Virus record (IMG/VR): IMGVR_UViG_3300027734_000248
Coordinates: 1 to 28,585 of that record
Source: a virus
Taxonomy: Duplodnaviria; Caudoviricetes
Strand: one strand, 5' to 3'
DNA length: 28,585 bases
Of the stretch, positions 8,288 through 25,723 are shown piece by piece; position 1 is the first letter of the stretch; each line of letters opens with the position of its first letter. The translations under genes were made by a program, and so were the position numbers. Below the pieces are notes generated by a model. That model saw nothing but the letters and a program-made list of their open reading frames with translations. It did no database searches and was not told the DNA's origin.

Positions 8288-8398
8288 TCCGTCAGGGATT
8301 GAGCAACGCTGTTTTTGTTGTCCCCTTTCACAGCAGGTTCTCCCTGACGGATTAGAAACCCTCTGATAGTTTATTCCCATTTCCTATCAGGGGGTTTC
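8288..8398 (+). ncRNA. Tandem 3' hairpins with anti-RBS loops (candidate sRNA or terminator)
   Basis: Stems 8288-8298/8341-8351 and 8355-8369/8384-8398; loops TTTTGTTGTCCCCTTTC and TTTATTCCCATTTC. Confidence 0.5.
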
Positions 8399-8583
8399 GT
8401 CTATCTGGCGAGCTTCAAATGTAGATGAGTTCCAGTAGATGCTGATGAGTGTGCGAACTTTACACTAACTAATACAAAGTTGTCAAGCCGAAGATTTTTA
8501 CTTTCTCTGTTGTATTCATTTTTTCACTAAACACACTCGTAGATGAGTTTGACTTTTGATTAGTCTTAGTGTAAAGTGAGGGT

Positions 8584-8925
8584 ATGATAATAGATACAGA
8601 AGCGTTTCCATACACGAACGAATACGACATCAACCTCTACTACGACAAAGAGAGAAGTAGGTTGCTCGTTATCGCCTACGAACTTGATTGGGAAGAGGAC
8701 AAAGACAATAAGGGCGAATACATACATTGTCTTAACAACTACGACAATCCAATAGAACTCTGCGAGATAGACGACGCCACACTCAAAGCGTGGGACTTCT
8801 ATGTATCTGACCATTGGACAACTCGCACACACTTTGAAGTGGAGTTCGCACACCTGCCTATGTTGCTACACATTATGAAACCACACCTAGAAAGTTTGCC
8901 AGCATACGAGGCGTTTCTGCCTTGA
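8584..8925 (+). CDS. Acidic hypothetical protein (leaderless)
   Basis: TTGACT 8549, TAAAGT 8572-8577, ATG 6 nt later. Confidence 0.8.
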   Translation: MIIDTEAFPYTNEYDINLYYDKERSRLLVIAYELDWEEDKDNKGEYIHCLNNYDNPIELCEIDDATLKAWDFYVSDHWTTRTHFEVEFAHLPMLLHIMKPHLESLPAYEAFLP

Positions 8926-8982
8926 CAAATAATCAAACTTGCTGTAAGGTGAAACTAACACAAAGAGAAAAGGACAATACAA

Positions 8983-9846
8983 ATGCCAAACTGGGTCTAT
9001 AACAGATTGAGTGTTGAGGGTAACCAACACGAACTACAAGAGTTCGTTGATAAGGCTAGAAAGCAAAATGAAACACGCTGGCTATCTGAACAATGGATTA
9101 GGAACGAGGACGGAACTAATACTTCCGTTGAGGACAAAGACCGAAAGATTGAGGTTGAGTTATCGCCAGAGTGCGACTTATCATTTTGGAACTTCGTAGC
9201 ACCACCAGAGGAAATCTGGTCTGAATACTTTGGAACTACTGGTTTCGTTGAGGGCGTGGGCTTTACTGGCGAGAAGTCAGATAACAACATAGACGGCTCT
9301 AATGGCTGGTATGGCTGGAACTTAGAGAACTGGGGAACTAAGTGGAACGCCAGAGATGTTGATTTAACGCAAGACGAAAATGAAGCTGTCTATACTTTCT
9401 CTACGGCTTGGTCTATCCCCGAACCTGTCTTTCGTGCTATGGCAGAACAACACCCGACCTTGACTTTCACTATGGGTTGCGAGGAAGAACAGGGTTGGGG
9501 TGCTGAATACTCAGCAAGGGACGGCTCGTTGTATCTTGATAAAGAGTGGGACATACCACAGAGCCACGCTGACTATGTTGCTAAGGACGACGAGGACGGC
9601 TGTGTCTGTGCTAGGGACGACGACCAAGATGATTGGTATTCCGATTGTCCGAGAGAGGACGGCGAGTTCCTAGTTGTTGTTACCAAGACTTACAAAGTCA
9701 GAACCAACACAGCCGAGAACGCATACGCACTTATCCAAGAGAACGGCAACGACCCTGACGAACTTATGGAGTTCGTTGAGGGAACTCTAAACTCGTATGT
9801 AGTTGATACGGACGGCAAGCGTATCTATCCAACATTGGATAACTAA
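8983..9846 (+). CDS. DUF1281/YubB-like ferredoxin-fold protein with a C-terminal extension
   Basis: MPNWVYNRL start; WYGWNLENWGTKWNA; FSTAWSIPEPVFRAMAEQHP; own promoter TTGACA 8922; AAGGA RBS. Confidence 0.8.
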   Translation: MPNWVYNRLSVEGNQHELQEFVDKARKQNETRWLSEQWIRNEDGTNTSVEDKDRKIEVELSPECDLSFWNFVAPPEEIWSEYFGTTGFVEGVGFTGEKSDNNIDGSNGWYGWNLENWGTKWNARDVDLTQDENEAVYTFSTAWSIPEPVFRAMAEQHPTLTFTMGCEEEQGWGAEYSARDGSLYLDKEWDIPQSHADYVAKDDEDGCVCARDDDQDDWYSDCPREDGEFLVVVTKTYKVRTNTAENAYALIQENGNDPDELMEFVEGTLNSYVVDTDGKRIYPTLDN

Positions 9847-9973
9847 TGAGAAGTTGGACTTGGACGGCTTGCTCTAAAAAGCTTCTTTGGATTAGCAGAC
9901 GGATACACAGGCTCGCTTATTGGGTTGGCTCGCTATCCGATTTAGCAGACCGACACGCCAGACGGAAACGGAT

Positions 9974-10002
9974 TTGACAGGCTCGCTTATCTGTGATAGT
10001 AT
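9974..10002 (+). promoter_or_regulatory. SigA-type promoter with no downstream protein gene
   Basis: TTGACA 9974-9979, 17 nt, TAGTAT 9997-10002; GACACG at 9952; GGCTCGCTTAT repeats nearby. Confidence 0.7.
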
Positions 10003-10008
10003 GACGGA

Positions 10009-10390
10009 TAGAACTTGATAACTCAATAAAGACTTGCTTGACAAACGCTGAACCATAGTTGGTGCGAGGGTAGGAGATAATGCTCATACCTTAATGTCCA
10101 TAACGGCACTCGCAGAACCATAGTTGGTGCGTTGGGTTAGTGTAATGACGAACTCTCAATGTCAAGGAAACCGAGTGGATACTCGCTAAACTAGGTCTGT
10201 GGAGATAGAAGCACTTGTCCGTCAAGGACATAATCTAATTAGCTTAATGAGAAGCAGACCAAATTAAAAGACAGAGCAAAATGCGAAATACAGTTCCCAA
10301 GTGGAAGTAGCAGGGGTGGAGTTAACGCCACCAGAGCAATACTGCGAAAACACCAGCGAACTAAGTAGCACTCTGTCTTTTCTTTTACCC
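10009..10390 (+). ncRNA. Candidate ~380-nt structured non-coding RNA
   Basis: Own promoter, no credible + ORF, duplicated 21-nt hairpin (10046, 10111), stems 10194-10200/10254-10260 and 10266-10276/10371-10381, T-rich end. Confidence 0.6.
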
Positions 10391-10502
10391 TCTGGACTTG
10401 TATTCATTTTTTCACAGCGAAGGTGAAGGACACTTTGGATTAGTAATGAAAAGTTCTGAAATGAGTTGCGAAATGTCATAGGCGTATGCTAGGCTGTCCC
10501 CT

Positions 10503-23794: not shown

Positions 23795-24028
23795 ATGAAC
23801 GGATTACAGGCAAGGGTTCTAGTCATTGGGCTAGAAATGGAAATTAAGTCAAACGGCAGAATGTCTATGACTAGAGAGCCAGCAATGAAGTCTCTAGGTC
23901 GCCTACTCCAGATTGACGCTTACGCTACATTTGGCAGGGGCGTCAAAGGTCGCCAAAAGGCTCTAGACTGGCTAAAGGAAATGATTGCCAAGGAAGAAGC
24001 TGGCGAAATGGAATACGAGCAAGAGTAA
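23795..24028 (+). CDS. Small hypothetical protein
   Basis: AAAGGGAAGT-ATG 23795; GLEMEIKS.G.M.MTR motif. Confidence 0.75.
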   Translation: MNGLQARVLVIGLEMEIKSNGRMSMTREPAMKSLGRLLQIDAYATFGRGVKGRQKALDWLKEMIAKEEAGEMEYEQE

Positions 24029-24219
24029 AAGTCTAGGGAAGTTCCTGTCCTGAAATACGGGCAGGAACTTTTCTTTTTTTTTTTTTTTTTTTTTTTTTTT
24101 TTTATGTATTCATTTTTTCACAGCTGACACGCCTAGTTTGTGGCGATTTGTGTTTCGGGGAAGTTTTTGGTAAGATTGTCTTGTTGGTGAAAAAGAAGTA
24201 ATCAACTGAAAGGGCAGAG

Positions 24220-24420
24220 ATGTCGGTTAAGTATCCAGAGATTAAGGTGAAGTTAGTCGGGACTGATGGCAACGCTTATGCGATTATGGGCAATGTCCAA
24301 AAAGCGTTAAAGCGTGCGGGAGTTTCGGCGGAAGAGATTTCACTCTATCTCAAAGAGAGTATGTCGGGCGATTACGATAACCTAATTGCTACGGCGTGTA
24401 AATGGGTCAGCGTATCCTAA
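24220..24420 (+). CDS. Conserved small phage-type protein (LVG.DGNA.AIMG...SGDYD.L family)
   Basis: Characteristic motif; GAAAGGG RBS. Confidence 0.82.
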   Translation: MSVKYPEIKVKLVGTDGNAYAIMGNVQKALKRAGVSAEEISLYLKESMSGDYDNLIATACKWVSVS

Positions 24421-24675
24421 CTCGCTAAAAGTTCCACCGCACCAAGCGGTTAAGTTGGGTAAAGTTTGTATGTTTGATAAAAGGAGAAAACATACGGGTA
24501 GTAGATGGCATTAGAGATAAGCCCCCGTTCAGACGGGGGTTTATTTTTTGTTGAGTTATTTGTATTCATTTTTTCACACTACAACACGGGTCGTAATGGC
24601 GATTTGGATTTGTCGGGGTGGAGTGGTATGATTGACTTGTAGTCAAAGGGGCTACCAAATAGTAAAGGGAAATAA

Positions 24676-24957
24676 ATGGCAAAGGTAAGAGGCGAAATAA
24701 ACTGCGATGGTTGCTCAGGATACTTTGATGGCGACCTTGCGGACTTGCTTGCTAAGACAAATACTCACGGGCTAACTGACCCTGTTAAGGTTAGGGAACT
24801 AACTTACTTCTGGTTGTGTGCGGAGTGTGCGGTTCACTATCCTAACGGGGCTAAGGACTTCTTCGTGAAGGACTACTTTGAGATTGAAGAACCATACTGC
24901 GTGGACTGCGAGATTGAACCTGTATTGACTTGGGGAAACTCCTGCGGTTGCGAGTAG
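24676..24957 (+). CDS. Cys-rich multi-Zn-ribbon protein
   Basis: CDGC, CAEC, CVDC, CGC. Confidence 0.78.
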   Translation: MAKVRGEINCDGCSGYFDGDLADLLAKTNTHGLTDPVKVRELTYFWLCAECAVHYPNGAKDFFVKDYFEIEEPYCVDCEIEPVLTWGNSCGCE

Positions 24958-24959
24958 AT

Positions 24960-25133
24960 AGAACTGAATAGAACTCTGGCTAAGCACCTAGGCAATACTT
25001 AGTCGGCGGAGTGGCGTATCGTGAAGTGCTACATCTCACCGCAAGTGAGTAGGAGCAACGCAAGTCGAGGTGAGTTCCGCAAGGAGCCTCGGCGAAGTTA
25101 GGTAAGTAGGATAGTCTGCTTACCTAACTTTTT
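24960..25133 (+). ncRNA. Candidate structured 3' RNA ending in a strong terminator
   Basis: Stems 24976-24984/24998-25006, 25035-25039/25045-25049, 25064-25070/25087-25093 (inner GCAA tetraloop); terminator 25095-25133. Confidence 0.45.
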
Positions 25134-25341
25134 AAGCTGGCAAGGTTGTATTCATTTTTTCACACTATACGGCTGGCTGGCGTGGTTGATTTGCGTTTGT
25201 CTGGGGTGTGTAGTAAGATGGTCTTATCAGGTAAAACGCTTGATACTGCTTAGGTCTAGCACTAGGTAAGCAGGGGAAATGGAGAGTGCTTTCCACCCCC
25301 CCCCCCCCGCCAAGCAGTTCCACAAATAGCAAAGGGACACA

Positions 25342-25467
25342 ATGGAACTAAGCGACAAAGAAGCAAAGGCAATAAAGGCGATTTATAGCGATTACCACGC
25401 AGGAGCAACTGACGCAGAGGAAGCACTACACGCCTTAGAGCAACTAATCAATGGGGATAACGATTAA
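25342..25467 (+). CDS. 41-aa hypothetical protein (not in the ORF track)
   Basis: AAAGGGACACA-ATG; MELSDKEAKAIKAIYSDYHAG...GDND; own promoter TTGCGT 25191/TAAGAT 25214. Confidence 0.65.
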   Translation: MELSDKEAKAIKAIYSDYHAGATDAEEALHALEQLINGDND

Positions 25468-25723
25468 TAACTAAATAGGTTTGGCAGGGTATCCCCCCCT
25501 TTCCCCTGCCAATACGAAGCACCTCACTTGTGATTATACCGAGTGGGGTGTTTCACTTTAACTTAGGGGCTGAGTATTCGGTGAAAAAATGAATACATAC
25601 TGGCGTAGCTTAACACGGGTCGCTAGGGAGTTTAGTTTCCGGTGTGTTTGGATTTGACTTTGTATTAGTTAGGGGCTATACTGGTCATAGACCAGCCAAG
25701 GTGGCTGGCTGAAAGGGTATCAA

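Follow-up and report, generated by a model that had tools for sequence, protein, structure and literature searches.

RNAs that derive from the 3′ ends of bacterial transcripts and pair with translation-initiation regions have been described in a few systems. In Vibrio cholerae, the CarZ and OppZ RNAs are reported to pair with the initiation region of their own operon, which results in negative feedback (PMC7398697). In Staphylococcus aureus, a C-rich motif in icaR's 3′ untranslated region (3′UTR) pairs with the Shine-Dalgarno (SD) sequence of the same mRNA, in an account that leaves the choice between cis and trans action open (PMC3868564). Similarly, a 3′ anti-SD sequence sequesters the SD of full-length type I toxin mRNAs of the aapA3 type (PMC6733600), and unpaired C-rich loops of RsaE and RNAIII (PMC2790875) and of 6C RNA (PMC6486639) are described as pairing with ribosome-binding sites (RBSs) without Hfq. 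Among phages, the RegB endoribonuclease of T4 inactivates early mRNAs, its own included, through the SD (PMC3014915). Here, 3′ hairpins with open loops are examined in a 28,585-nucleotide (nt) stretch of DNA (IMG/VR record IMGVR_UViG_3300027734_000248, positions 1 to 28,585; hereafter, the window), which is part of an actinobacterial phage of freshwater origin. A sequence-only reading of the window had suggested that the loops, being antisense to the RBSs of an array of short genes, silence SD-led phage or host mRNAs. Strong co-variation evidence across related phages now points to pairing of such loops with the phage's own initiation sites, above all for the hairpin behind a gene that encodes a vWA-domain protein.

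Hairpins behind genes of the window

The hairpins that carry the six loops are:

8286..8353, plus strand: h1, the first 3′ hairpin behind the vWA gene, with an open, anti-RBS loop at 8313-8329
8355..8398, plus strand: h2, the second 3′ hairpin behind the vWA gene, with its loop at 8370-8383
14170..14204, plus strand: h3, terminator-like with a U-rich tail, behind gene 13657-14148, with an anti-GAAAGGG loop at 14182-14192
16619..16716, plus strand: a three-hairpin tail behind gene 16267-16614, comprising h4 (loop 16631-16643), a small middle hairpin and h5 (loop 16691-16702)
25481..25512, plus strand: h6, behind gene 25342-25467, with its loop at 25490-25503 and a second hairpin next to it at 25516-25554

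All six loops were recovered where the sequence-only reading had placed them, and they fold as open loops, with z scores of -4.9 to -6.8 (200 shuffles) and mean unpaired probabilities of 0.82-0.98 (0.54 for h6). The h1/h2 pair begins 15 nt past the vWA stop codon, and h2 is likely the transcript end of that gene. A total of 5 plus-strand copies of CCCTTTC occur in the window, each ending an open hairpin loop just behind a gene, compared to 19 copies on the minus strand; one CCCATTTC likewise terminates such a loop just behind a gene. Positions that end a loop of 8-22 nt closed by at least 9 bp number 235 of 28,505 in the window, and 5 of the 6 motifs end a loop of this kind, the closing stem of h1 being 5 bp on an interrupted long stem. 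The other 3′ hairpins of the array are mostly short-looped (e.g., GAAA).

The claimed complementarity to GAAAGGG RBSs was borne out for every loop except that of h2, which is complementary to AAAUGGGA start-codon regions (at 6409, 13657, and 16267) and not to an SD. The h1 loop fits GAAAGGGACA-type leaders with a 1-nt bulge. It should be noted that the GAAAGGG of the ssb leader begins at 14333 and not, as first given, at 14334. Among 52 starts (one mis-set), the best four partners of h2 include 13657, 16267, and 6409, which are the three AUG-GGA-starting genes that carry such tails. The stems, initially called unrelated, are not wholly so: h6 matches, at 30 of 32 positions, a hairpin that in one relative (L172) lies behind the homologue of gene 16267, in the place of h4.

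Because the window motif was chosen after the fact, a family-wide test of CCTTTC carries more weight. Searches with the vWA protein and with an alignment of the neighboring AAA ATPase gave 9, 80, and 80 loci; a total of 161 loci formed 88 clusters at 95% amino-acid identity, with 75 representatives of at least 8 kb. The window's own contig (L248) represents the window in the permutation and swap tests reported below, while L158, L162, and L168 are of the same strain and add no information. Across the 75 phage loci, 53 of 202 plus-strand CCTTTC sites fell in hairpin loops, as against 9/221, 9/323, 3/183, and 4/214 (2-4%) for four control hexamers and 35/784 for CCTTTC on the minus strand.

In an alignment of 7 phages, 14 of the 30 consensus pairs in the h1/h2 stems were changed on both sides, and 80 post-vWA hairpins contained 61 isolated G·U against 3 isolated A·C. 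These compensatory changes, together with the excess of G·U over A·C, indicate that plus-strand RNA is the functional form. A long-loop hairpin lies within 125 nt of the vWA stop in 63 of the 73 phages with both gene ends. Of the remaining hairpins, h4/h5 are kept in L161, L172, and L173, the loop of h6 is kept in L130 with changes in its stem, and the loop of h3 is present only in the closest relatives. Moreover, the gene that precedes the h6 module is not the same in every phage (e.g., L172), and the tail behind homologues of gene 16267 is kept where the RBS of that gene differs (L269, L181). The sequence-only reading had called for stem covariation with conserved loops and had named loops missing from relatives as evidence against itself; stems that vary while pairing is kept, and a post-vWA hairpin in most relatives, leave the idea standing. 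By these comparisons of sequence, the hairpin is a real, conserved RNA element found at the predicted mRNA 3′ ends of early phage genes.

The objection that the loops are chance features, DNA cruciforms, or RBSs of minus-strand genes, the last of which had been raised at the outset, is extremely improbable. A 102-codon minus-strand open reading frame (ORF) does begin inside h2, with a promoter-like site at 8486-8457 on that strand, but it was rejected as a gene: in three relatives the ORF shrinks to 17-22 codons, and 1 of 72 phages has the promoter match. The remaining loops lead to minus-strand ORFs of at most 7 codons or to none, and the G·U bias marks plus-strand RNA, leaving this explanation largely refuted.

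Co-variation of loops and RBSs at the vWA gene

The features that bear on pairing at this gene are:

6409..8271, plus strand: vWA/HExxH gene, the 620-aa product of which combines an HExxH motif in its N-terminal part with a vWA/MIDAS domain of NorD-like fold in its C-terminal part
6384..6420, plus strand: vWA translation-initiation region, the counterpart of which is the co-evolving target in relatives
6345..6373, plus strand: promoter-like site before the vWA gene, sigma-70-type, 10/12 match, with TG ahead of the -10 box
5288..6295, plus strand: AAA_5 (MoxR/CobS-type) ATPase gene, the product of which is the likely partner of the vWA protein

Across 63 phages, the post-vWA loop pairs with the RBS of its own vWA gene at a mean of -14.62 kcal/mol, compared to -9.84 +/- 0.33 kcal/mol when the partners are permuted, and none of 5000 permutations reached the native value. 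The start of the AAA gene also beats permutation, weakly (-10.42 versus -8.93 kcal/mol). Among approximately 34 called starts per phage, the vWA start was the best partner in 21 of 55 phages (1.8 expected; 2.6 against SD-led competitors only) and in the top 5% in 28 of 55, and the offset profile peaks at the vWA gene itself (offset 0). When targets were swapped within 31 disjoint pairs of relatives, some of them distant and a few with loops that were probably mis-extracted, the native combination was better in 23, the swapped one in 4, and 4 were ties (p=3e-4); the same swap with the AAA RBS as a control gave 13 versus 11 (30 pairs). Genome-wide, the vWA start ranks 1 of 201 in phage G002, 3 of 184 in G005, and 1 of 205 in G003.

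Unusual RBS variants are mirrored by the loops lineage by lineage (L178/L180, L191, L228, L279, L301, L317, and L309), including the RBSs GAAAGGUGA in L191, GAGAGGAA in L228, GGAAACGA in L279, and UGACGGAAGG in L317, and L178 differs from L180 by a single-base compensatory difference. The vWA RBS is predicted to be open (0.94 unpaired). Pairing with the SD-led mRNAs of the phage itself, one half of what the sequence-only reading had proposed, is therefore supported by the permutation, rank, and swap tests alike. The strongest signal, which that reading had not noticed, is the match of the post-vWA loop to the RBS of the gene that immediately precedes it, and this points to autoregulation.

Of 71 vWA homologues, all contain the HExxH motif and 69 contain a DxSGSM MIDAS motif. 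A predicted model of the vWA protein (pLDDT 84) has its best match in NorD vWA domains (E ~5e-6, vWA part only). From these features we infer that the protein may be a metallopeptidase-vWA partner of the MoxR-type ATPase, and one might guess that it would need tight dosing. For the other loops, vWA and AAA have median ranks of 0.55 and 0.58 (n=68), and the two genes were rejected as their targets. In some relatives (L301, L186, L213, L235), an anti-RBS loop lies behind the AAA gene, and in L301, L186, and L213 it matches the AAA RBS over 9-10 nt. In six cultured Microbacterium and Gordonia phages, inspection of folds of the 110 nt behind the long gene downstream of AAA, a gene for which vWA homology was not tested, revealed no open anti-RBS loop. 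In the window, a hairpin between the AAA and vWA genes (6316-6355) contains the -35 box of the vWA promoter in its 3′ arm; the 16-nt loop recurs with little or no change in L159 and L166, on stems that differ.

The early array, the host, and other structured elements

Downstream of the vWA gene lies the set of candidate targets in trans:

8512..28477, plus strand: array of short early-type units, each beginning with a 16-mer and continuing with a promoter-like site, an ORF that is either SD-led or leaderless, and a hairpin

The AAA ATPase of the window is 74% identical to that of DSL-LC01, with Microbacterium and Gordonia phages as the next matches. DSL-LC01 is described as a metagenome-assembled actinophage (PMC10611076). 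AAAGGG precedes 21 of 49 curated starts of the window, and the best partners of h3-h6 are GAAAGGG(G) leaders (e.g., 21459, 21920, 22375, and 26381). The SD of the vWA gene is AAAGGA in the window, and C-type loops mismatch the GGA-type vWA SD throughout the window's clade. The h1 loop reaches -13 to -15 kcal/mol against array leaders versus -10.3 kcal/mol against vWA, while h2 pairs over 8 bp across the vWA AUG. Among phages with a vWA SD of GGA/T, C-type loops occur in 7 of 10 with GGG-rich neighbors versus 1 of 10 without (Fisher p=0.02), and the loop of DSL-LC01 fits many array RBSs best. By sequence there are two regimes, one in which the loop closely fits its own mRNA and another in which it fits the early array more broadly, given that the window and DSL-LC01 loops fit the array, that others lack an own-gene preference, and that the h6 module moves between genes.

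Several observations weigh against repressive pairing by the loops. In 10 of the 73 phages, the 125 nt past the vWA stop contain no long-loop hairpin, and a general rule by which each 3′ loop would match its own gene was rejected, as loops behind other genes have their own RBS as top partner in 5 of 159 cases (4.8 expected). The vWA start ranks only 27 of 53 for h1/h2 in the window and 38 of 112 annotated starts in DSL-LC01 (two 50-kb stretches), and many window duplexes are merely 7-9 bp long (-10 to -17 kcal/mol). Independent origins behind the trans signal are few (3 pairs lie on well-supported branches, with p ~0.5 in a sign test), and a swap test on non-vWA targets gave 13 versus 7 (n=21), which is not significant. 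Starts were called by a crude script that itself favors SD-like sites, and the duplex energies ignore loop topology. Contigs of an RNA run (X1, 5% of sampled words) cover few short pieces of the window and none of the six hairpins, and are uninformative. Finally, co-variation indicates pairing and not the sign of its effect.

The last point leaves room for pairing that is real yet protective or activating, through shielding of the 5′ end, storage of mRNA, or recycling of ribosomes; the full-length aapA3 mRNA, for instance, is described as a stored form that is activated by 3′ trimming (PMC6733600). The paired segment here is the SD or the AUG itself, though, and in all of the precedents cited initiation is blocked while the duplex lasts, such that a non-repressive role appears quite improbable. 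A strictly cis fold-back, in which the tail closes only its own mRNA in the manner of icaR or aapA3 and other matches are incidental to the reuse of one SD, is unlikely, though less improbable than the other alternatives. Co-variation is specific to vWA, for the genes at 13657, 16267, and 25342 the loops behind each gene can pair with a (G)AAAGGG site of that gene, and the top four targets of h2 hold 3 of the 4 hairpin-bearing genes (hypergeometric 7e-4, post hoc). Such a mechanism sits poorly with the lack of own-gene preference among non-vWA loops, with the GGA-type vWA SD of the window's clade, to which C-type loops are not fully complementary, and with a tail behind 16267 homologues that persists despite a different RBS (L269, L181).

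Among cellular SSB proteins, the nearest homologues belong to records titled Rhodoluna, Microbacteriaceae, Micrococcales, or Actinomycetota, and a Rhodoluna-like host is therefore likely, on SSB similarity only. Host starts, 734 called in total, were taken from 52 of the 80 SSB loci, with a minimum length of 10 kb and after removal of one phage-like locus. AAAGGG precedes 5 of these 734 as against 21 of the 49 phage starts; the commonest upstream hexamer at host starts is TAGGCT, which resembles a -10 box and thus suggests many leaderless host genes. A duplex energy of -10 kcal/mol is attained by the h3-h6 loops at 12-16 of the 49 phage starts, compared to 2.5-5.3% of host starts; for h1, the values are 30 of 49 and 15.8%, respectively. 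Host shut-off by anti-SD small RNAs, the other half of the sequence-only proposal, is very improbable on these numbers, as the loops track RBS variants particular to the phages and are poor partners for Rhodoluna-type starts. In its favor, C-rich loops of 6C RNA are reported to repress G-rich RBSs in mycobacteria without a chaperone (PMC6486639), and the near-invariant hairpin h0, described below, could be host-directed. No 6C RNA was detected in 5 Rhodoluna-type genomes, the completeness of which is unknown, in a search whose control was detected in only 1 of 14 genomes.

A further C-rich loop had been grouped with the six:

1381..1428, plus strand: h0, a separate hairpin upstream of ORF 1450, with a near-invariant CUCUCCCC-type loop

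This loop (1397-1412) is real but behaves differently. In 48 of 55 phages, the 500 nt upstream of the homologue of ORF 1450 contain a CUCUCCCC-like motif on stems that change freely, and the loop does not follow the phage RBS. Outside the hairpin itself, 3 of 4 phage records have a single exact 9-mer complement; these lone complements sit in unrelated contexts, for which reason no target is assigned. The h0 loop may be host-directed or protein-bound. All of the loops could in principle be binding or decoy sites for a protein, such as an S1-like or cold-shock protein or a nuclease for pyrimidine-rich or anti-SD-like RNA. Loops of the h4/h5 type and that of h0 vary rather little in sequence and are similar to the 16S tail of a Microbacteriaceae genome: the CCUCCUUUC tail was found in that one genome of the 5 Rhodoluna-type genomes, and GAAAGGGG pairs with it through one G·U. 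A protein site would not be expected to follow lineage-specific RBS changes base by base, however, and this explanation is accordingly improbable for the loops as a class.

Other structured or repeated elements were noted in the window. An invariant 16-mer is present in 31 copies (8512-28061), upstream of nearly every array promoter, and is likely an activator or nucleoid-protein site that marks early promoters; reversed copies occur at 4024, inside a hairpin loop (4013-4049), and at 25581. The ORF-poor region 9850-10390 contains several stems and a 16-nt motif that is twice repeated. Its conservation in L169-L171 and L249 amounts to 80-87%, and it has no Rfam match. A 206-nt contig of RNA run X1 is identical to 10071-10276, with a word depth of 238.8 versus 2-4.7 for other identical pieces (one run, contig depth only), which makes the region a candidate for an abundant phage noncoding RNA. 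Behind ORF 24676-24957, a compact multi-hairpin 3′ region (24960-25131; -62.5 kcal/mol) has several GCAA-containing loops; it had no match among the blastn matches listed, and a contig of DNA run X2 covers it. A long structured leader at 25225-25340 includes a long C run near 25297-25309 that is absent in L130 and so may be strain-specific or an assembly artefact. Long poly-T runs at 24078-24103 and 28532-28585 are probably assembly artefacts at terminator tails. An Rfam search of the window (E<=1) returned two sub-threshold matches, neither at the loops, and the window holds no tRNA or tmRNA.

A putative feedback circuit and its relation to known systems

The reading that we consider probable is that the loops of 3′ hairpins pair with the phage's own RBSs and lower early translation as transcripts accumulate. 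RNA polymerase would finish the 2-kb vWA mRNA, and the tail, either still attached or as a stable decay product, would form a kissing contact with the unpaired RBS of the same mRNA. The RBS would be open while the mRNA is made, and the loop of the finished tail would then block loading of the 30S subunit there or on other early mRNAs. Stable hairpin tails left by decay would accumulate and sharpen the shut-off, and feedback of this kind would limit the AAA/vWA-HExxH module to a short burst. In the window's lineage, the loops appear to have been retuned to CCCC-UUUC and copied behind several array genes, so that action would be mostly in trans, on approximately 20 GAAAGGG-led array mRNAs. The h2 loop would cover AUG-GGA starts, that of vWA included, while leaderless units would escape the anti-SD loops.

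More tentatively, and with less confidence than in pairing and repression as such, these parts may amount to a protein-free timer of early phage genes. Portable anti-RBS hairpin modules on finished early mRNAs would co-evolve with a private SD dialect, and rising early transcription would stop SD-led early translation, that of the own module first, while sparing host, leaderless, and late messages, as an RNA-only counterpart of T4 RegB. To our knowledge, how early protein synthesis is switched off in phages that lack a RegB-like nuclease is poorly known. If true, the circuit would extend 3′-end RNA feedback, known from few chromosomal genes, to phage development, and would supply orthogonal, chaperone-free pairs of loop and RBS. 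It is directly testable with synthetic reporters, because natural compensatory variants in dozens of phages name both seed and target. A literature search that covered titles and the starts of abstracts, with subscription journals outside its coverage, found no published phage case of such loops.

The 6C RNA is defined by two consecutive hairpins, each with a conserved run of approximately six C. The tandem loops here hold 3-5 C and vary between phages, and the window has no Rfam match to 6C (RF01066; at E<=1) or to RsaE and RNAIII. The likeness to these RNAs lies in unpaired C-rich loops with complementarity to RBSs, yet RsaE, RNAIII, and 6C are described as stand-alone host small RNAs with conserved loops (PMC2790875, PMC6486639). 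As in CarZ and OppZ, the hairpins lie in the 3′UTR of the gene that would be regulated (63/73 phages), and complementarity to the initiation region of the own transcript is evident family-wide but weak in the window (27/53; h2 over 8 bp at the AUG). CarZ and OppZ are reported to be Hfq-bound and RNase E-processed (PMC7398697), whereas actinobacteria are described as lacking Hfq (PMC6486639), and the present elements differ in having a large hairpin-loop seed, in being copied along a phage early array, and in a seed that co-evolves with phage-specific RBSs.

An icaR-like arrangement, in which a 3′ element would pair with the SD of the same mRNA, is favored by the co-variation in relatives; in the window's clade, C-type loops mismatch the GGA-type vWA SD. 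For icaR, a single chromosomal gene with a fixed UCCCCUG motif, cleavage by RNase III was demonstrated (PMC3868564); here the motif varies by lineage and is located in terminal hairpin loops. Systems of the aapA3 type comprise short toxin mRNAs, an antisense antitoxin, and protection during transcription (PMC6733600), as opposed to an mRNA of 2 kb whose RBS is open and for which no antisense RNA is conserved; the vWA gene encodes 620 aa and a minus-strand promoter match is found in 1 of 72 phages, which sets it apart from type I toxin-antitoxin loci. In function, the nearest analogue is RegB, which likewise acts on early phage messages and on its own, but RegB is a protein nuclease that cuts GGAG (PMC3014915), while in the phages considered here the pairing of RNA with RNA would take its place.

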